A DNA stretch of 64,000 nucleotides, taken from the NCBI GenBank assembly GCA_045645285.1, contig JAZRIL010000006.1, forward strand, positions 1,185-65,184, written 5' to 3'. The notes beneath the pieces are model-generated. The model was given only the letters and a program-made list of their open reading frames with translations, did not search any database and had not been told where the DNA came from. Positions within the stretch are counted from its first letter, which is position 1; each line of letters starts with the position of its first letter. Below, one piece after another: positions 2,863-60,891 of this stretch. The stretch is from Elusimicrobiaceae bacterium (GTDB taxonomy: Bacteria > Elusimicrobiota > Elusimicrobia > Elusimicrobiales > Elusimicrobiaceae). The translations under genes were made by a program, and so were the position numbers.

Positions 2863-3945
2863 TTACACTCTATTTTTATAAAACGGCGGTTTGACTACTT
2901 GCGCGGGTACGCGGCGGGCGTGGATTTCAATTTCCACGTCTGCTCCGGCGGGAACTGAACTGTCCAAATACCCTACGGCAATTCCTTTAAATAACGGGGA
3001 AAACGTGCCGCTTGTTAAATAACCCACTTCTTTCCCTTCGTAAAAAACTCTGCAGCCGCTACGCGGAACACCTGCCGTTTTTAATACAAAACCAACTAAA
3101 CGGCTTGGAAATCCGGCGGATTTTTTGGCAACGAGTGCGGCTTTGCCGATAAAATTTTCTTTGGCAAGTTTAACCACCCAACCGCAGTTGGCCTCGTACG
3201 GCGTTTTGGTCGGGTTGGCGTCCTCGCCGTTGAGCAAATACCCGGCTTCTAAACGTAACACGTCGCGCGCGCCGAGCCCGCACGGTTTTACGCCCAACTG
3301 CAATAGCGTATCCCACAATTGACCGATTTGCGCGTTGGGGAGCATAATTTCCACGCCGTCCTCGCCGGTGTATCCGGTACGGGTCACGTAGCCGTCCGCC
3401 CCGAACATCGTTAGCGGCGAAATGTGAAAACGCGGCAAATCTTTCACGCCGGGCAAGAGTTGGTTGACAATTTCCACGGCCTTCGGGCCCTGCACAGCCA
3501 ACATGCTCCATGTATTGCTTTCGTTGCGTACGGTAACATCAAAAGCGGCGGCGTATTTGTTAAGCCAATTAAAATCCGTTTCCACACACGCGGCGTTGAC
3601 GACGACTAAAAATTGGGTTTGCGACAGACAAAAGGCAATTGCGTCATCAATAATCGTGCCCTCATCCGTTAAAATGTGGAAATACGTACCTTCGGCCGGA
3701 CCGTTTTTAATGTTATTGCAACCGATAAATTGCAAAAACTCCCACGCTTTCGGGCCCTCCACAAACAGTTGGCCCATGTGCGACACGTCAAACATACCCG
3801 CGCTTTCGCGCACGGCTTTGTGTTCGGCTAAAATGCCGTCGTATTGCACGGGAAGTAACCACCCGTGGAAATCCACCATTTTACCGCCGGCTTTTTCACA
3901 TGCGCAGCGCAAAGCAGTTGTTTTGAGAGTACATGTTTCGGTCAC
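2863..3945 (-). CDS. gcvT: aminomethyltransferase (glycine cleavage T protein)
   Basis: 360 aa containing GGKMVDFHGWLLPVQY and MFDVSHMG motifs. GTG start with AGGAGA 6 nt upstream. Confidence 0.92.
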   Translation of the reverse strand: MTETCTLKTTALRCACEKAGGKMVDFHGWLLPVQYDGILAEHKAVRESAGMFDVSHMGQLFVEGPKAWEFLQFIGCNNIKNGPAEGTYFHILTDEGTIIDDAIAFCLSQTQFLVVVNAACVETDFNWLNKYAAAFDVTVRNESNTWSMLAVQGPKAVEIVNQLLPGVKDLPRFHISPLTMFGADGYVTRTGYTGEDGVEIMLPNAQIGQLWDTLLQLGVKPCGLGARDVLRLEAGYLLNGEDANPTKTPYEANCGWVVKLAKENFIGKAALVAKKSAGFPSRLVGFVLKTAGVPRSGCRVFYEGKEVGYLTSGTFSPLFKGIAVGYLDSSVPAGADVEIEIHARRVPAQVVKPPFYKNRV

Positions 3946-3964
3946 AAAAATCTCCTATACGGTT

Positions 3965-3973
3965 ATTATATCA
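3965..3973 (-). promoter_or_regulatory. extended -10 (TGaTATAAT) for the gcv operon
   Basis: Minus-strand reading is TTGATATAATaaccgtatAGGAGAtttttGTG. The implied 5' UTR is only about 20 nt. Confidence 0.5.
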
Positions 3974-4035
3974 AACAAAGAATGTTTTTGCCCCGGCGAT
4001 AACCCTTCTATTTTCTTCGGGTTACAAAATTTTAC

Positions 4036-4063
4036 TTGACAAATCAAAAAAAAAAACGATAAT
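4036..4063 (+). promoter_or_regulatory. pilin promoter cassette copy 1: TTGACA, 16-nt spacer containing A11, GATAAT
   Basis: TTGACA at 4036..4041, A11 at 4046..4056, GATAAT at 4058..4063. The block is nearly identical to 7827.., 36738.. and 60827... Confidence 0.7.
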
Positions 4064-4097
4064 AGAGTGTCGGACAAAAAAGACAAAGGAGAATTTT

Positions 4098-4778
4098 ATG
4101 GAAAGCAATAAATATAAAAAAATGTCATTCCCGAAATTCGTTGTCGGGAATCTTCCTCTTGTTAACTCGTTAATAAAAGAGGAAAAACAACTTTATTGTA
4201 TGCAAAAAGTGGAAGATCCCCGACAGAAACCCTCGGGGATGACATCTAATTTAATGGGCTTTACGTTAATAGAATTATTAGTTGTCGTTCTTATTATCGG
4301 TATTTTAGCGGCGGTGGCGTTGCCGCAATATACTTTGGCCGTCAACAAATCGCGGTTTGCCAATTTAAAAACTGCCGCACAATCCTTTGCTACGGCCGCG
4401 CAAGTGTATTATTTGGCTAACGGCACCTGGCCCGGTAATTTTGATGAATTGGCCATAGACGCCACCGCCGGATTTACCAAAACCAACAATCCCTATGGCG
4501 GCGGAGTCAATACAGGAACTTGTGCCGGTAATAATGAAATATATTGTTGCATTCTTCCGTCAGTAGAAGGGCAGTCTGCCAGCGTTATATGCGGACGCCA
4601 AGATTATTCTTTCGCCGCGATGCGTTTTTTAACGGACGAGCTAGATGATTGTATAGCAAAAACAACCGATACAAAAGCCGTCGCCCTCTGTAACGCGTTA
4701 GGCTCTTTTTACAGAACAGCCAATATGCCCACCCCGGAAGGCCACAAAAGCGGCTACAGTTATTACCGGTTGCCATAA
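4098..4778 (+). CDS. type IV pilin-like protein (prepilin-type N-terminal cleavage/methylation domain) with a 54-aa leader
   Basis: AAGGAG sits 7 nt upstream of ATG 4098. Motif G|[24 protein letters not shown] is present. The ORF-track start at 3933 runs through the promoter and was rejected. Confidence 0.8.
   Translation: MESNKYKKMSFPKFVVGNLPLVNSLIKEEKQLYCMQKVEDPRQKPSGMTSNLMGFTLIELLVVVLIIGILAAVALPQYTLAVNKSRFANLKTAAQSFATAAQVYYLANGTWPGNFDELAIDATAGFTKTNNPYGGGVNTGTCAGNNEIYCCILPSVEGQSASVICGRQDYSFAAMRFLTDELDDCIAKTTDTKAVALCNALGSFYRTANMPTPEGHKSGYSYYRLP
4124..4243 (+). mobile_element. 120-bp MITE-like palindromic element (two inverted family-1 hairpin units) in frame in the pilin leader
   Basis: Termini are GTCATTCCCGA...TCGGGGATGAC. 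Hairpins are ATTCCCGA/TCGGGAAT, CCTCTT/AAGAGG and ATCCCCGA/TCGGGGAT. A homologous copy lies at 36922..37053. Confidence 0.7.
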
Positions 4779-4810: not shown

Positions 4811-4937
4811 AATTTCAAACTAATTTGGCGCGGGTCTAGGCACGCGCCGACGTAGCGTACATACGCAAACGGGGCGTAGCCCCGCGGGTACGTAAGGAGG
4901 CGCGTAACAACGAGCCGCACCAAATTAGGAAGAAATT
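4811..4937. repeat. family-2 nested palindromic element A (127 bp)
   Basis: TIRs are AATTTCAAACTAATTTGGCGCGG and CCGCACCAAATTAGGAAGAAATT. Internal TCTAGGCAC and TAACAAC boxes and GC-rich inner hairpins are present. An extra outer stem CTTACGC/GCGTAAG lies at 4793..4799 and 4945..4951. Confidence 0.65.
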
Positions 4938-7714: not shown

Positions 7715-7826
7715 CTATTTCATTACCTCACTTTTAATAACTCACTTTCGGTTAGTTTTTCAGCCCACAAACACAGATGCTTTGTTAGAGCCGTTTAGAC
7801 TCTTGCGTCGGGCTGAAAAGATTTCC

Positions 7827-7854
7827 TTGACAAATCAAAAAAAAAAACGATAAT
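7827..7854 (+). promoter_or_regulatory. pilin promoter cassette copy 2 (TTGACA, A11 spacer, GATAAT)
   Basis: Differs from copy 1 at only 2-3 positions across about 68 nt, including the SD and the first codons ATGGAAAG. Confidence 0.7.
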
Positions 7855-7888
7855 AGAGTGTCAGAGAAAAAAGACAAAGGAGAATTTT

Positions 7889-8560
7889 ATGGAAAGAAAA
7901 AATCAGTTAAAGATTTGTTTGACCTCGCCCCTTGCGGGAGAGGATGCCCACAGGGCAGGTGAGGGGTGTAAAAAAGGAAATAACTTTATGGTTTCCCCCT
8001 CATCGGTTTGTTCGGACTTCGTCCGCCAAACCACTTCCCCCTCACAGGGGGGAAGCCATACGGCAAACAGCGGCTTTACGTTAATAGAATTATTGGTCGT
8101 CGTCCTTATTATCGGTATTTTGGCCGCCGTGGCGTTGCCGCAATATCAAAAAGCCGTTATCAAAGCGCGGTTTGCTAATATCAAAACTGTCATGGCAGAC
8201 ATTAAACGCGCCGAAGAAGCATACTATTTAGCCAACGGAGAATATGCGTTTGATTTGGATGCGCTGGCCACGGAAAGTTCATGCCAAAAATTGTCCGCCG
8301 ATGACGGCTCCACCTATACCTGCGGCTCTTACTTTGATGTGGATGTAATTGGAGCCGTACAAGCAGATGCGACCGCAAATCACCTGTACCTGGACGCTTA
8401 TTACTGTCCAACCGTAGCAAGCACCCATACCCGGGTTTCTCAGTGTTTGTCCGCCCGAGAATTTACCTACCGCGTTTGGTTAGATAATTCCTCCAATCCC
8501 GGAACAATCACCTGCACCGGCACGACGGCACTGGGTCAACAAATTTGCGCCAACCCGTAA
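7889..8560 (+). CDS. type IV pilin-like protein with a 71-aa leader
   Basis: SD AAGGAG and motif G|[28 protein letters not shown]. An alternative internal start at 7988 (AAGGAA upstream) cannot be excluded. Confidence 0.75.
7923..8055. repeat. array of four GC-rich hairpins inside the pilin-2 leader coding region
   Basis: The hairpins are CCTCGCCC/GGGAGAGG, TGCCC/GGGCA, GGTTTG(CGGAC/GTCCG)CCAAACC and CTTCCCC/GGGGAAG. All are translated in frame. Confidence 0.55.
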
Positions 8561-8654: not shown

Positions 8655-8712
8655 GATCTCTCTTTTTTATATCCCGCATAGAAAAACTGCGGGATGACGA
8701 AAAAAGAGAGAT
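8655..8712 (-). repeat. family-1 REP-like hairpin (core 8669..8700) inside outer stem CTCTCTTTTTT/AAAAAAGAGAG
   Basis: The reverse complement of the core is TCGTCATCCCGCAGTTTTTCTATGCGGGATAT. Confidence 0.7.
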
Positions 8713-36651: not shown

Positions 36652-36737
36652 GGCTACTATTTGCAAACCAATCCTTTTCAGACCCGGTTTTATTCAATTA
36701 AACAACGTACTATTTCCGTTGGACCGCCAAATTTTCC

Positions 36738-36765
36738 TTGACAAAGCAAAAAAAAAAACGATAAT
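36738..36765 (+). promoter_or_regulatory. pilin promoter cassette copy 3 (TTGACA, A11 spacer, GATAAT)
   Basis: Same block as the other copies. It is separated from its SD by an inserted palindrome. Confidence 0.65.
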
Positions 36766-36787
36766 AAAGAGACGAAAAAAATATAAG

Positions 36788-36862
36788 GTCATTCTGAAGA
36801 CCGCGCCTCGTCATCCCGCAGTGTTGGTATGCGGGATATGGGCGCGGTGAGAAAGGAATGAC
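36788..36862 (+). repeat. three-layer nested palindrome with a family-1 core (36808..36839) in the pilin-3 5' UTR
   Basis: Structure is GTCATTC..ACCGCGCC-TCGTCATCCCGCAGTGTTGGTATGCGGGATAT-GGGCGCGGT..GAATGAC. Confidence 0.7.
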
Positions 36863-36889: not shown

Positions 36890-37543
36890 ATGAACAACAA
36901 AAGCCGTTATGAAAAAGAAGTGTCATTCCCGAATTTGCCCGTCCGGCAAGGACTCGGGAATCTTCCTCTTTCTAGGTCGTTATTAAAAGAGGAAAAACAA
37001 CCTTATTTTATGAAGAAAGTAGAAGATCCCCGACAGAAACCTTCGGGGATGACAACGCTTTTTTATAACGGCAACGGTGGTTTCACTCTCATTGAACTTC
37101 TTGTAGTTGTACTCATCATCGGAATTTTGGCGGCGGTGGCCCTGCCGCAGTATAAACAGGCCGTGGAGAAAAGTAAAATTATGCCTTATATTTCTTCTCT
37201 AAAAACACTGGCGCAGGCACAAGAAGTCTTCTTTTTGGCTAATGGCAGGTATAGTCTTTTTAGCCAAGATTTAGACATTACCGTCCCCTCTACTTGCACA
37301 ACAGTAAATGATAATGTTTTTAAGTGCGGAAATCTAGCATGGATGGAAATTTATAATGCCGAGACTAAAGCCCTACTTTTTGTATATTGTCCGAATAGTC
37401 TTCAATCTTGGGGCACGTGTAATGCTGCTAGTCATTTTGAGTTGAAATATAATTTAGAATCCGGTAACGCATCCTCGTCCGGGTGGGAATGTACCGTTAA
37501 AAACAATTCCTCTTTCGGAAAGTACTTCTGTAAAACTTTCTAA
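36890..37543 (+). CDS. type IV pilin-like protein with a 65-aa leader
   Basis: SD AAGGAG and motif G|[28 protein letters not shown]. Confidence 0.8.
   Translation: MNNKSRYEKEVSFPNLPVRQGLGNLPLSRSLLKEEKQPYFMKKVEDPRQKPSGMTTLFYNGNGGFTLIELLVVVLIIGILAAVALPQYKQAVEKSKIMPYISSLKTLAQAQEVFFLANGRYSLFSQDLDITVPSTCTTVNDNVFKCGNLAWMEIYNAETKALLFVYCPNSLQSWGTCNAASHFELKYNLESGNASSSGWECTVKNNSSFGKYFCKTF
36922..37053 (+). mobile_element. 132-bp MITE-like element, homolog of 4124..4243, in frame in the pilin leader
   Basis: Same termini GTCATTCCCGA...TCGGGGATGAC. About 85% identical to copy 1 apart from a 12-nt indel. Same reading phase. Confidence 0.7.
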
Positions 37544-37551
37544 TTTATTAC

Positions 37552-37585
37552 AAAAAAGAGCCACCCAAAAGGGTGGCTCAATTTT
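37552..37585. terminator. bidirectional terminator between pilin-3 and fusA
   Basis: Sequence is AAAAAAGAGCCACCCaaaaGGGTGGCTCAATTTT. Confidence 0.85.
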
Positions 37586-37606
37586 ACTGCACTCAATCTA
37601 GTTGAC

Positions 37607-52168: not shown

Positions 52169-52232
52169 CTAGGTATAACAGCCGTTTTTATTTGGCTTTG
52201 TGCCGGGCCTGGGAAATAAAAAGGAGAAAAAA

Positions 52233-52976
52233 ATGAAAAAAGTAATAATAGCAGTAATTAGTTTGTTGTGTATCGCCCCGTTGTTTGCACACGAATCCAA
52301 TTCGTATATGGCGAAACCGGGACAAGGCAGTTTGTTTGGCAGTAGCCAAAAAACGGATGAGAAAAAAATTGCTCAAGAAACTTCCGTTCGGACGGGCCAG
52401 TTCGGTGTTGGCTTGCGCGCCGGAATCGCCCAAAACGACCCGAAAGACATGAAAGACGAGTACAATACGTTAGGCGATGGAGATTTTAGACACGCTAAAT
52501 TAGAGAAAGGAAATGGTGTTTTTGGTTTAGAAGCATTCTATGAATGGTCTACAAATCAAGAACCGAGTAAGGTAGGCGTCAAACTGGGAATTGATTGGTA
52601 CGGACAGAACAAATTAACACTGGACCAATCTTTGCTTTACATGGATGAAAAGTTTACTGAAACCACTTATGCAGTGCCTCTTACGATGTATTATAAATAT
52701 GACGGCGGCGTTAAAAATTGGAGTTGGTTTATTGGAGGAGGTGCTACATGGATACATTCGGAAGTAGAAACCGAGGGGCTTTGGCCTGATGTGACATTAT
52801 CTAAAACTAAAATCTTCCCGCACATTACGGCCGGAGCAGAATATCGTTTCAATGAAGTGTTTGCTTTAGGGTTAGATCTAAAATACAACATCGCGGCCAA
52901 GGTTAAAAAGGACGGCGATGTTTTGTCTGACCGTTCCGGAATTGGAGCTGCCTTGACAGGTAGATTCTATTTCTAA
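52233..52976 (+). CDS. outer-membrane beta-barrel protein (porin/OmpA-N-like)
   Basis: SD AAAGGAG, signal peptide MKKVIIAVISLLCIAPLFA, alternating beta pattern, C-terminal GRFYF. Confidence 0.7.
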   Translation: MKKVIIAVISLLCIAPLFAHESNSYMAKPGQGSLFGSSQKTDEKKIAQETSVRTGQFGVGLRAGIAQNDPKDMKDEYNTLGDGDFRHAKLEKGNGVFGLEAFYEWSTNQEPSKVGVKLGIDWYGQNKLTLDQSLLYMDEKFTETTYAVPLTMYYKYDGGVKNWSWFIGGGATWIHSEVETEGLWPDVTLSKTKIFPHITAGAEYRFNEVFALGLDLKYNIAAKVKKDGDVLSDRSGIGAALTGRFYF

Positions 52977-52999
52977 TAGAGTCTTCCTCCTAACAAGAC

Positions 53000-53032
53000 C
53001 CCCCGTTTCCTATTGGGAAACGGGGGATTTTA
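53000..53032 (+). terminator. rho-independent terminator
   Basis: Sequence is CCCCCGTTTCCtattgGGAAACGGGGGATTTTA. Confidence 0.85.
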
Positions 53033-53143
53033 TTGGACTTTCACACAAAAAAGGCGTATTTCTAGGCACTTGCGAGAAAAGTATACTGGCGGCGCGGTAT
53101 TATTTCAACGGTTTATAAGCGTTTTATTCAGAGCCAATCGTAT

Positions 53144-53190
53144 CCCCCGCTCGTCATCCCGCAGTGTTTCTATGCGGGATATAGCGGGGG
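53144..53190 (+). repeat. family-1 REP-like hairpin (core 53151..53182) in outer stem CCCCCGCT/AGCGGGGG
   Basis: Core is TCGTCATCCCGCAGTGTTTCTATGCGGGATAT. Confidence 0.7.
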
Positions 53191-53204
53191 GCAATATATA
53201 TTTA

Positions 53205-53213
53205 TGCTAAAAT
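53205..53213 (+). promoter_or_regulatory. extended -10 TGcTAAAAT 6 nt upstream of ATG (leaderless-type)
   Basis: Sequence reads TGCTAAAATacccatATG. Confidence 0.45.
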
Positions 53214-53219
53214 ACCCAT

Positions 53220-53513
53220 ATGGGATATGTCTACATACTGACCACAAAAAATAACAAAATGCTCTATATCGGAGTTACAAATAATTTGCTACGACGTGTG
53301 TATGAGCACAAACAAGGTTTTGTGGAAGGTTTTACCAAAAGATTCCATATTAAAAAATTAGTCTATTATGAGCAATACAATTCCATTCAAGATGCCATAC
53401 AACGAGAAAAAGTCTTGAAAGAATGGAATCGCGCCTGGAAAGAATATCTAATAAATTCTTTTAATCCTTCTTGGAAAGATCTTTACGAAGAAATAGCCCC
53501 CTCTTTTTTATAA
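53220..53513 (+). CDS. small stand-alone GIY-YIG nuclease family protein (COG2827/YhbQ-like)
   Basis: 97 aa containing GYVYIL..LYIGVTNNLLRRVYEH...QREKVLKEWNRAWK. Confidence 0.85.
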   Translation: MGYVYILTTKNNKMLYIGVTNNLLRRVYEHKQGFVEGFTKRFHIKKLVYYEQYNSIQDAIQREKVLKEWNRAWKEYLINSFNPSWKDLYEEIAPSFL

Positions 53514-53517
53514 AAAC

Positions 53518-53561
53518 AACCCTTTTATTTATATCCCGTCTTCACACGTCGGACAAGGGTT
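53518..53561 (-). repeat. degenerate family-1 hairpin in outer stem AACCCTT/AAGGGTT
   Basis: Sequence is TATATCCCGTCttcacacGTCGGAC, which compares with TATATCCCGCA...TGCGGGATGAC. Confidence 0.45.
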
Positions 53562-53592
53562 AAGTCAGCGAGAAAGCAAAGAAACTAAAAAA

Positions 53593-53645
53593 CGCTCTCT
53601 TTTATATCCCGCATAACAACACTGCGGGATGACGAAAAGAGAGCG
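53593..53645 (-). repeat. family-1 REP-like hairpin (core 53604..53635) in outer stem CGCTCTCTTTT/AAAAGAGAGCG
   Basis: The reverse complement of the core is TCGTCATCCCGCAGTGTTGTTATGCGGGATAT. Confidence 0.7.
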
Positions 53646-53787
53646 TAAAAAGGGACCCCTGCCAGGAAGGTCCTGTCCTTTCACACAAAAAAGGCGTCCC
53701 ACCACCCCAAGACTAACATTGTAGAAGATTATATGATTTTTCAAAATCGCTCCAAGTTGCGCGGGCTAGTTGGGCGCATAGGCGTTT

Positions 53788-54054
53788 GGGTTGGCAAGGT
53801 GTTCTGTTTGCTCTATTGCGTTTAGCCGTTTTTGCGTAAGACGGCTAGGCAAAAAAGTGATGGCTATGTAATCATAGACAAACTTTTCTAACAACGCCGG
53901 ATAGCAAAAACGGCTAAACCCTTCGGGCCGCGCCCTTTTTGGTTATCACTTCTTTTTTTGCGCGCACCTAGTTCACTAGGCACGCGCAAAAGAAACTACG
54001 CGCTACCTCAAAAAGTTCAGCGGCGCAAAGGCAAAAAGAGCACCTTGCCAACCC
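53788..54054. repeat. 267-bp element with perfect 14-bp TIRs GGGTTGGCAAGGTG / CACCTTGCCAACCC, containing nested palindromes
   Basis: Inner element at 53820..53919 has 16-bp arms GTTTAGCCGTTTTTGC and CTAGGC and TAACAAC boxes. A second palindrome lies at 53950..53994. Confidence 0.6.
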
Positions 54055-54119
54055 AGTTACGTCAAGGGCAAGGCGGGGCAAAGATACTCAAATGTGGCAA
54101 ATTGTTGGCCAACGATATA

Positions 54120-54156
54120 GCAAACGCCCGCAAAAGATATCTTTTGCGGGCGTTGC
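54120..54156. repeat. 37-bp near-perfect palindrome centred on GATATC
   Basis: Sequence is GCAAACGCCCGCAAAAGAT|ATCTTTTGCGGGCGTTGC. Confidence 0.6.
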
Positions 54157-54211
54157 GAAAACGAAACTTAACAAAGCCGTTAAATAGTGAAAGGGACGGT
54201 ATCCTTTGAAG

Positions 54212-54317
54212 AAAAACCCCTTAATTCTAGGCGTGAGGCGGCGCAGTATACTGTGCGAAGCGGCGCGGTAGCGCCGAGGTATTCAAGCCGCCGAACAACA
54301 ACGAAGTAAGGGGTTTT
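54212..54317. repeat. family-2 nested palindromic element D (106 bp), directly downstream of 5S on the minus strand; likely operon terminator
   Basis: TIRs are AAAAACCCCTTAATTC / GAAGTAAGGGGTTTT. Contains TAGGCG and AACAACAAC boxes and inner hairpins GCAGTATACTGTGC and GCGGCGCggtaGCGCCG. Confidence 0.65.
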
Positions 54318-54336
54318 ACAAAAAAGGATAGAGGCC

Positions 54337-54470
54337 TTGATGAGACCGACATCGATCTACTCTCTCAGCACCGAATTGGGTGCCAATACCATCGACCCTT
54401 ACGAGCTTAACTGCCGTGTTCGGAATGGGAACGGGTGTGACCTCGTCGGAATTAATATCAGTCTCATCAA
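54337..54470 (-). rRNA. rrf: 5S ribosomal RNA (ends approximate)
   Basis: The reverse complement contains CCCGTTCCCATTCCGAACACGGCAGTTAAGC and GAGAGTAG. Terminal helix is GATGAGAC/GTCTCATC. Confidence 0.85.
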
Positions 54471-60634: not shown

Positions 60635-60826
60635 CTCTTTTTTTCTCCGTCGGAGATTTTTATAAAAATTGACTTTATTTCAAAAGAACTGGCAACTTTC
60701 GTTGCGGTTTTGCGCGGTTTGTTGTGCGCTGAAAAACTGCATTACTATTTATATATTTATTGTAACAAAATCTGCGCAACCAAGCAACACTTCCTCTTTT
60801 TCATTTTTCCCGCAGGTAGAAAATTC

Positions 60827-60854
60827 TTGACAAAGCAAAAAAAAAAACGATAAT
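60827..60854 (+). promoter_or_regulatory. pilin promoter cassette copy 4 (TTGACA, A11 spacer, GATAAT)
   Basis: Same block as the other copies. The uninterrupted UTR leads to SD AAGGAG. Confidence 0.7.
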
Positions 60855-60891
60855 AGAGTGTCAGACAAAAAAATAACAAGGAGCGAACAAT

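Follow-up and report, generated by a model that had tools for sequence, protein, structure and literature searches.

In a 64-kb stretch of an Elusimicrobiaceae contig (JAZRIL010000006.1; the whole stretch of 64,000 nucleotides is here called the window) we examined ssn (53220..53513, + strand), a gene for a 97-aa single-domain GIY-YIG protein that lies between inverted copies of a dispersed hairpin repeat. Homology and layout indicate that the locus is very probably an SRM-ssn-SRM module, that is, a gene for an Ssn-family nuclease together with its cognate hairpin repeats, and in these terms it is a divergent new Elusimicrobia member of the known Ssn/SRM kind. The hairpins belong to the CGTC-tagged superfamily of repetitive extragenic palindromes (REPs) and are scattered through Elusimicrobiaceae genomes, singly or joined head to head as heterodimers, with many at pilin-gene 5' ends. 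Comparison of related loci reveals the anatomy of the cassette, the conserved pairing and co-variation of its hairpins, its edges, and insertion sites that differ between genomes, one of which is empty. An earlier note on this DNA had proposed a REPtron-like layout in which a small GIY-YIG nuclease is paired with dispersed hairpins; this core idea is supported by comparison, at 15 of 15 distant loci as well as at the Elusimicrobiaceae loci. The locus is not a REPtron in the strict sense, as the protein has no HUH/Y1 domain and the tag is not GTAG, and the note's further statement that no such pairing had been described is wrong, the Ssn/SRM system having been published in 2025.

That description (Chenal et al. 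2025, Nat Commun 16:2388, March 2025; PMC11893778) started from dRS3 and defined a 28-nt repeat, NTS (CGTCATTCCCGCGMAVGCGGGAATCYRG). NTS and related SRM hairpins flank ssnA across bacteria, and SsnA is a 94-aa single-domain GIY-YIG protein of cd10448, a family that was treated as separate from Slx1 and UPF0213 and delimited by a homology criterion of E < 1e-10. SsnA of Neisseria meningitidis and three homologues are site-specific single-stranded DNA (ssDNA) endonucleases, of interest as the first such enzymes, which bind the hairpin (NTS/SRM) only in its ssDNA form and only one way round, and make their cut a few nucleotides upstream; the tested homologues left double-stranded DNA (dsDNA) uncut. 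Cutting is abolished by Y6A, Y17A and E64A, and in Neisseria the C immediately 3' of the palindrome is the base most important for binding. SRM occur near 71% of ssnA homologues and on both sides of 42% (PMC11893778). The NTS-ssnA-NTS layout was likened to an insertion sequence (IS) as a hypothesis only, and N. meningitidis SsnA lowers the integration of NTS-flanked transforming DNA (PMC11893778). The paper mentions no Elusimicrobia and does not cite the work on CGTC REPs, in which Di Nocera et al. (2013, BMC Genomics 14:522; PMC3733652) divided REPs between two superfamilies, one tagged with GTAG and the other with CGTC. Those with CGTC leave this tag unpaired, have an 8-9-bp stem starting AT, and form head-to-head dimers that are often heterodimers; Rickettsia RPE-4 and RPE-6 and Neisseria dRS3 are counted among the CGTC REPs, which 'apparently lack a dedicated transposase' (PMC3733652). 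By joining these two literatures we infer that Ssn is a dedicated protein partner of the CGTC REPs.

Several lines of evidence indicate that the 97-aa protein very probably belongs to the Ssn family. Pfam GIY-YIG (PF01541) covers its residues 1-74 (E 4.6e-16), which bears out the open reading frame (ORF) read in the earlier note; no second domain was detected, and the Pfam search gave no match to Y1_Tnp. Y5, Y16-I17-G18, R26, E29, H30 and E63 are invariant across 15 homologues, and Y5, Y16 and E63 correspond to SsnA Y6, Y17 and E64. As a proxy for homology we searched contigs of viruses and prophages for exact copies of the NTS consensus and compared the genes lying between two NTS copies with the 97-aa protein by tblastn. 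The enclosed proteins (in L133, L183, L206 and L219; L numbers denote the loci and contigs compared) are 47-49% identical to it at E 1e-25 to 1e-28. In L183, for example, a gene at 7850-8113 whose product is 48% identical (E 1e-25) is enclosed by NTS copies at 7785 (+) and 8141 (-). The only relative in the PDB by sequence is the UPF0213 protein BH0048 of B. halodurans (1zg2; E 0.005, 20 bits), and a PDB sequence search found no solved structure of an Ssn protein. UPF0213/COG2827 proteins, among them E. coli YhbQ, are alike in size and in the GIY-YIG core; with similarity this marginal, the label 'COG2827-type' in the earlier note was imprecise.

The window system and the published one also share a single-domain architecture of ~94-97 aa in which the catalytic Tyr, Tyr and Glu agree, a gene placed between inverted hairpins that start (C/T)GTC-AT, hairpins that far outnumber the gene and cluster near surface-protein genes, and 48-62% identity to proteins in canonical units. 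They differ in the host phylum, here Elusimicrobiota, in the hairpin loop (9 nt in the window versus 4-5) and 3' tail (ATA versus C(YRG)/CCA), and in a variable outer stem that makes the CGTC tag an internal loop and is undescribed in PMC11893778. The likeness to the CGTC REPs extends to the unpaired CGTC/TGTC tag, the 8-bp stem starting AT, the head-to-head dimers, often heterodimers, the occurrence of copies within coding regions or at their beginning, and the lack of an adjacent HUH transposase; again the loop (9 nt versus 4-5; PMC3733652) and the tail (ATA versus CCA) differ. The canonical loop of 4 nt and the tail CCA are present around distant homologues.

Some points weigh against the assignment. 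Membership is judged from homology to proteins inside canonical NTS-gene-NTS units and not to SsnA itself. The published SRM pattern, HGTCWYN(0-2)YYVSBRHN(0-5)WNVSBRGN(0-2)RNCYNB, a search pattern rather than a biochemical definition, has 0 matches in the window and 0 in cassettes L001, L004, L006, L056, L127 and L262, although it does match canonical units in L120, L183, L206, L253 and L257, which served as positive controls; it misses the Elusimicrobiaceae hairpins because of their 9-nt loop and ATA tail. In the window hairpins A(TA) stands in place of the C 3' of the palindrome. None of the tested substrates has a 9-nt loop or an outer stem of this kind, and the rules of recognition may therefore be different. 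Finally, the hairpins are found in two orientations relative to the gene (hp+ gene hp- and hp- gene hp+), which is awkward for a simple model of terminal inverted repeats.

The pattern likewise misses ssn-flanking hairpins in other Elusimicrobiaceae, in Francisella and elsewhere (L008-L111, L112, L116, L123, L252), so the published association rates of 71% and 42% are probably underestimates. With a cognate site outside the published pattern, the Elusimicrobia member means that pattern-based surveys undercount the system, and its protein would widen the range of ssDNA cutting specificities.

Anatomy of the cassette and its hairpins

The left hairpin (53144..53190, + strand) has two tiers, a feature absent from the earlier note. 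An outer stem, CCCCCGCT/AGCGGGGG (53144-51 with 53183-90), encloses the unpaired CGTC tag (53152-55), an 8-bp inner stem, ATCCCGCA/TGCGGGAT (53156-63 with 53173-80), around a 9-nt loop, and an AT bulge (53181-82). Its predicted ssDNA fold has -17.9 kcal/mol (z -5.6), and its core (53152..53182, +) stops 37 nt upstream of the ATG. At the right end of the cassette, directly 3' of the stop codon, lies a decayed hairpin on the opposite strand (53518..53563, -) that aligns with the intact right hairpins of relatives (L001, L004, L012, L056, L085 and L262). It retains the outer-stem arms AACCCTT.../...AAGGGTT, its inner stem and tag are gone, and it no longer folds (z -1.35 versus -5.6 to -9.7 in intact copies). 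Beyond the conserved cassette follows a solo full unit (53592..53646, -; core 53604..53635) with outer stem GCTCTCTTTT/AAAAGAGAGC, inverted relative to the left hairpin and with a fold of -19.8 kcal/mol (z -9.7). The coordinates and folds thus bear out the flanking inverted hairpins of the earlier note, an intact one upstream and a decayed and a full one downstream.

The exact family, ATCCCGCA-N9-TGCGGGAT, has four copies in the window, at 8671 (-), 36813 (+), 53156 (+) and 53606 (-), where 0 are expected by chance, and 2 of the 4 fall <130 bp from the ssn gene. The hairpin is therefore dispersed in the window, as the earlier note had it, at 8671 and 36813, in an exact family of just four copies in total. 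The first of these two (8656..8712, -; -18.4 kcal/mol, z -9.1) has no gene attached and lies downstream of a pilin gene (7889-8560); the outer stem of the solo unit recurs there and in L101, with the same CTCTCTTTT arm as at 53592 and two T longer. The second (36788..36862, +; -23.2 kcal/mol, z -5.7) lies in the 5' leader of a pilin gene (36890-37543), has outer stem ACCGCGCC/GGCGCGGT at 36800 and is nested within two further outer stems. The order is everywhere outer stem, unpaired CGTC, 8-bp inner stem starting AT, 9-nt loop, inner stem, AT, outer stem. All four copies carry CGTC, and the units of miniature inverted-repeat transposable elements (MITEs) at the pilin genes carry TGTC; both are unpaired in predicted ssDNA folds.

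Pairing was evaluated in 186 hairpin units gathered with the seed CGTCAYCCC, which demands no pairing. The inner stem shows compensatory pairs: pair 1 is A-T in 160 of the 186 units, pair 2 is T-A in 126 and C-G in 32, and pair 7 is C-G, T-A or G-C. In the same set the outer stem shows 5-6 pair types at every position and is paired in 61-73% versus 45-51% in slid controls. In a separate set of 190 units chosen by a paired inner stem, an outer stem of at least 5 bp is present in 66% (versus 9% at random positions), with 86 different 5' arms. Rfam has no family for the hairpins or the cassette, at the gathering threshold over the whole window or at the E-value threshold over 52900-54400, the scans giving rRNA, tRNA and chance miRNA-like matches only.

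The earlier note had described an AT-rich segment, and this is borne out for the gene, whose GC content is 0.35-0.36 in surroundings of ~0.44-0.49. A putative extended -10 element, TGcTAAAAT (53205..53213, +), lies inside the cassette, where TTTATGCTAAAATA is kept among cassettes; the consensus promoter scan made no call there. The ATG at 53220 is preceded by no Shine-Dalgarno sequence, so the ssn mRNA is probably leaderless or nearly leaderless.

Gene-hairpin pairing, cassette edges and contexts

The 97-aa protein has more than 7,300 homologue clusters across phyla, at 60-93% identity, many on short contigs. Its nearest homologues, at 74-93% identity, come from Elusimicrobiaceae metagenome-assembled genomes (MAGs), and relatives at 60-66% identity occur in Francisella, Omnitrophota, Dadabacteria and Patescibacteria. 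The hairpin family brackets ssn in L001, L004, L006, L012, L016, L056, L061, L072, L082, L085, L108, L127 and L262, Elusimicrobiaceae loci that sit in different gene neighbourhoods; in L001, L004, L012, L056, L085 and L262 the hairpins are intact on both sides of the gene. Stems have changed with compensation, to ACCCCGCA/TGCGGGGT in L001 and to ATCCCGTA/TACGGGAT in L006. When homologues from other lineages were chosen by protein alone, (C/T)GTC-AT hairpins lay within 400 bp of the gene in 15/15 loci. The Francisella homologue has CGTC-ATTCTACGG-CTTGA-CCGTAGAAT (a loop of N5) upstream and an inverted copy downstream; the Omnitrophota homologue P0077, 62% identical, is flanked by TGTCATTCCCGCGCAAGCGGGAATCCA and its inverted partner, a canonical NTS-like unit; homologues on viral contigs are also in canonical NTS-like units; and the P0086 homologue has a doublet on each side and is inserted between glyQ and glyS. 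Because every homologue locus examined is flanked and the hairpins co-vary with the protein lineage, the link between gene and hairpin, as judged from these comparisons, is not chance but real, and it is conserved across phyla.

Two observations on other contigs stand beside this. In L116 (one of the contigs L116-L119), an ssn homologue 63% identical to the window protein (gene 2001-2285) has a full doublet of ~90 nt on each side in direct orientation; the insertion splits glyQ and glyS, which are normally adjacent, and the doublet is very similar to the MITE found in pilin genes of the window. The viral or prophage contigs L141, L178 and L208 (IMG/VR) carry arrays of 6-13 exact NTS-consensus repeats spaced ~75-280 bp apart, the listed copies all alike in orientation in L141 and all but one on one strand in L178 and L208; Ssn sites have thus been amplified in tandem in other taxa.

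The converse scan, for the hairpin in one genome per species, gave at least 104 matching stretches, and among the 80 matches listed all but 5 titles are Elusimicrobia MAGs. The ssn gene is present in ~10 of the at least 104 stretches, and no sampled MAG has more than one. The remaining ~90% are gene-less, either solo units or + - doublets 49 nt apart, and among the matches listed many doublets pair an ATCCCGCA unit with an ACCCCGCA unit. The pattern is one of a single gene and many gene-less sites.

When six cassettes were aligned, identity began abruptly at ~53145 and ended at ~53563, between unrelated flanks, which defines a hairpin-gene-hairpin cassette of ~420 bp. The L262 cassette, with a 93%-identical protein, has the same edges and compensatory changes in the left outer stem relative to the window. 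The cassette is found in at least six contexts: between the outer-membrane beta-barrel (OMP) gene and the rRNA operon in the window (OMP|rrn), ybeY|rplA (L001), pilin|dnaE (L004), POR|tRNA-Phe (L006), pilin|fusA (L012, L056, L108, L127, L262) and glyQ|glyS, and in others besides. In the closest relatives, with proteins 93% identical, it lies at fusA, and in the window genome at OMP|rrn. The corresponding fusA|pilin intergenic region of the window is an empty site of 63 bp (37544..37606) with a terminator only and no hairpin remnant; the window fusA 3' end is orthologous (84-88% DNA identity), and the pilin gene beyond the spacer is convergent. Sharp edges, at least six contexts and one empty site support cassette mobility, and on these alignments the cassette behaves as a discrete, relocatable unit. 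The evidence speaks for movement of the cassette, and none of it bears on the enzyme responsible. It goes beyond PMC11893778 in that it is comparative evidence for relocation, where the paper had a hypothesis only.

An empty OMP|rrn site was not found in a metagenome scan with the OMP protein, which gave only relatives of 46-63% with different downstream genes. L073 and L011 (for L006) and L035 and L096 (for L085) were considered as empty sites and rejected, as their gene order differs.

The locus is also bracketed by a direct repeat. CTTTCACACAAAAAAGGCGT occurs exactly twice in the window, 640 bp apart, with 0 expected by chance and a match that stops at 20 bp on both sides, which confirms the perfect repeat reported in the earlier note. 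The left copy (53038..53057, +) lies just past the terminator of the OMP gene (53000-53026), and the right copy (53678..53697, +) forms, on the minus strand, the T-tract of a terminator-like site (53708..53691). The copies lie 87 bp left and 114 bp right of the cassette edges, with the solo hairpin in the right interval. We rejected the repeat as a canonical target-site duplication, since it stands off from the conserved cassette edges, and as a piece of a larger duplication, since there is no extension and the 87- and 114-bp intervals are matchless in other loci except for the solo hairpin.

Such repeats recur, at 16-27 bp in 5/12 Elusimicrobiaceae cassettes, those of the window and four others: 27 exact bp within a diverged module of ~60-100 bp in L004, 22 bp comprising the entire fusA terminator in L056, 18 bp comprising the 3' half and T-tract of a terminator in L061, and 16 bp in L108. 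In cross-locus controls the longest shared string has a mean of 8.3 and a maximum of 15. Possible causes are long target duplications of variable length, duplication between nicks on opposite strands, or selection for a terminator on each side. In L127 (1303-1620) an insert of ~270 bp beside the ssn cassette has a 22-bp direct repeat of its own at its flanks, AATCGTTTCAACTG(A/C)AACAG, so long flanking direct repeats may be a general trait of intergenic insertions in these genomes and not specific to ssn.

Proposed activity and rival explanations

The most reasonable explanation, and one we consider highly likely, is that the 97-aa protein acts as an ssDNA-specific, hairpin-directed nickase on the dispersed CGTC hairpins. 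By homology with N. meningitidis SsnA and the three other tested homologues, its predicted activity and cut position would be as follows; any role in hairpin spread or in the control of recombination or transformation is likewise putative. Where DNA becomes single-stranded, in replication, in DNA uptake or in recombination intermediates, the repeat would fold into the hairpin. Binding by the protein would be limited to one orientation, with the stem sequence and the unpaired CGTC serving for recognition, and the nick would fall in the same strand, a few nucleotides before the tag on its 5' side; here this places it within the pyrimidine-rich 5' arm of the outer stem. With the flanking hairpins inverted, there would be one cleavable site per cassette strand, at the 5' side of that strand. 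The window copy itself may no longer be mobilisable, because its right hairpin is lost; with the ORF and catalytic residues still intact, it is probably fixed in place and would act in trans on other hairpins.

The hypothesis that the nuclease disperses the hairpins underlies a first rival explanation, an active selfish transposon, in which the cassette would be autonomous and Ssn would be a transposase that also moves gene-less units and doublets. In such a GIY-YIG counterpart of IS200/IS605 and of RAYT/REPIN, ssDNA would be excised or copied between hairpin-directed nicks. This extends the nickase explanation and does not compete with it, and we regard it as a genuine possibility that nevertheless falls short of probable. 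It is the idea raised in PMC11893778, and it fits the sharp common edges of 6-7 aligned copies, the at least six separate contexts, the fusA|pilin site that is empty in the window and filled in the closest relatives, direct repeats longer than the cross-locus maximum at 5/12 cassettes, and the many homologues on short contigs, as repeats are. Less easily accommodated are the ~1 gene copy per MAG in sampled loci, nearer to RAYT than to an IS, the flanking repeats that vary in length and lie off the cassette edges with no canonical target-site duplication visible, and both hairpin orientations relative to the gene; relocation could equally be explained by recombination or transformation between dispersed repeats. 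We know of no strand-transfer or covalent-intermediate chemistry in GIY-YIG enzymes, which are hydrolytic nucleases. A hydrolase alone cannot rejoin DNA, so movement, if any, would be host-assisted.

It is also conceivable, if a little harder to credit, that Ssn is a domesticated host nuclease that restricts or shapes the recombination of hairpin-marked ssDNA, incoming or replicating, as in Neisseria transformation. The hairpins would then spread otherwise, and the gene would keep its flanking sites, for instance for autoregulation. The effect of N. meningitidis SsnA on NTS-flanked transforming DNA points this way, as do an apparently single-copy gene that is intact and conserved despite one decayed flanking hairpin, the concentration of doublets at pilin (surface-protein) genes, like that of NTS in Neisseria, and compensatory changes that show purifying selection on the two-tier hairpin. 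Domestication, however, leaves unexplained a sharp-edged cassette at different loci and the empty site. Host-serving and transposase-like roles could both hold, and sequence does not decide between them.

A free-standing homing endonuclease gene, for which the hairpins would be a multi-copy target and which would have homed repeatedly into existing doublets, seems improbable. GIY-YIG proteins do include homing endonucleases, the 97-aa protein has a weak TIGR01453 match confined to residues 1-36 (21 bits versus a cut-off of 56), and in L006 and L116 doublets enclose the gene or one adjoins it. With 97 aa there is, however, no DNA-binding domain, and the tested homologues leave dsDNA uncut; the cassette outer stems (CCCCCGCT; ACCCTTTTATCT) travel with the cassette, unlike those of common doublets (GCCCCT; CACACACT); and the empty fusA|pilin site of the window has no hairpin target. 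Mere coincidence, with ordinary REP-like or terminator hairpins gathering in spare intergenic DNA and the gene just happening to be nearby, we consider very improbable. It would suit the ~90% of hairpin copies that are not beside the gene, and some hairpins may act as RNA, the GGGRTGAC start being in frame with a prepilin leader in 19 cases. Against this, all homologues examined are flanked, other phyla included, the hairpin sequence shifts with the protein lineage, half of the window copies are close to the gene, and the biochemical specificity of homologues is published.

Comparison with known mobile systems draws similar lines. REPtrons (a RAYT of the HUH/Y1 class, GTAG-tagged REPs and REPIN doublets) resemble the locus in a single-copy gene between inverted hairpins, many gene-less singlets and doublets, and a hairpin with an unpaired 4-nt tag recognised on ssDNA; they differ in the enzyme (GIY-YIG hydrolase versus HUH/Tyr transesterase) and the tag (CGTC versus GTAG). 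IS200/IS605 elements, whose Y1 transposase TnpA moves ssDNA by 'peel and paste', share subterminal hairpins, the lack of a canonical target-site duplication and action on ssDNA, whereas their end hairpins lie on the same strand and are not inverted as here, their enzyme is of another class, and the cassette of ~420 bp is far smaller. The GIY-YIG homing endonucleases I-TevI and the Seg proteins share the catalytic domain and the association with mobile DNA; they also have a DNA-binding domain at the C terminus and cleave long, asymmetric target sites in dsDNA, whereas the window protein is a bare catalytic domain.

A broader and more speculative proposal, to which we attach rather low confidence, is that the cassette is a mobile element driven by a GIY-YIG ssDNA nuclease and that Ssn is the missing mobiliser of the whole CGTC-REP superfamily (the Rickettsia RPEs, Neisseria dRS3/NTS and the Elusimicrobial hairpins). 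If true, this would be a transposon class without a DDE, HUH, serine or tyrosine enzyme, moving by hairpin-directed nicks on opposite strands, and it would explain why the flanking duplications are long, variable and often made of terminator pieces, and why so many different outer stems surround one conserved core. The suggested bridge to CGTC REPs lacking a dedicated transposase, among them the in-frame Rickettsia elements, would make the question testable if Ssn is the partner.

Pilin genes and other repeats

The window MITEs at 4123-4244 and 36920-37054 (120-130 bp) sit inside pilin ORFs 3933-4778 and 36890-37543. Their units have the architecture of the family hairpin (tag, 8-bp stem starting AT, 9-nt loop) with a TGTC tag, stems ATTCCCGA or ATCCCCGA and another 3' tail, and they are a sister subfamily distinct from the hairpins of the cassette. 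The earlier note had taken them for the same hairpin, in the relation of a MITE to its autonomous element. The first claim fails on tag, stems and tail, and the second on the subfamily, since the window MITEs belong to another one; in relatives, doublets of the cassette's own hairpin family carry outer stems that differ from the cassette ends and are therefore not simple deletion derivatives.

In type IV pilin-like genes, hairpin doublets are placed at the 5' end, where the GFTLIELL prepilin motif follows them directly, both at these two places in the window and in L013, L019, L044, L053, L065, L070, L078, L091 and others. In related genomes, 35/178 units lie within ~110 nt of GFTLIELL. In 19 of these 35, an ATG or GTG within the conserved GGGRTGAC is in frame and yields a short leader, M/V-T-x4-6-G-F-T-L-I-E-L, which would put the start codon within the stem of the hairpin. 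The pilin MITEs of the window are apparently read through in frame, comparable to the in-frame Rickettsia RPEs and to NTS near Neisseria surface-protein genes. Such hairpins are concentrated at surface-structure genes in a second case besides Neisseria, this time at type IV pilin-like genes, where the hairpin can supply the start codon.

Upstream of four pilin-like genes, a block (TTGACAAAKCAAAAAAAAAAACGATAAT) is near-identical at 4008-4079, 7799-7870, 36710-36781 and 60799-60870. It has good -35 and -10 hexamers with an A11 tract between them; the spacer could be slippage-prone and is a candidate for phase variation.

The ssn locus itself lies between the OMP gene (52200-52976) upstream and, on the other side, the 3' end of the rRNA operon on the minus strand, whose 5S ends at 54344. 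Between the right 20-bp repeat and the trailer of that operon is a module of ~80 nt (gactaacattgtagaNgNttatatgatttttcaNatt...attgcgcgggcNagt...ataggcgt; 53711-53790) that recurs in L004 (~1440-1520), L028, L033, L068, L080, L094 and L101 and in many Elusimicrobiaceae intergenic regions, often close to hairpin units. It has no Rfam match and is a candidate small RNA, promoter or other repeat. Another dispersed repeat of ~120 bp (window 4813-4935, L001 3428-3549, L069, L091; 74-78% identity among copies) is unrelated to the CGTC hairpins, and in L001 its ends are mutually inverted (ctaatttggcc...ggaccaaattag).

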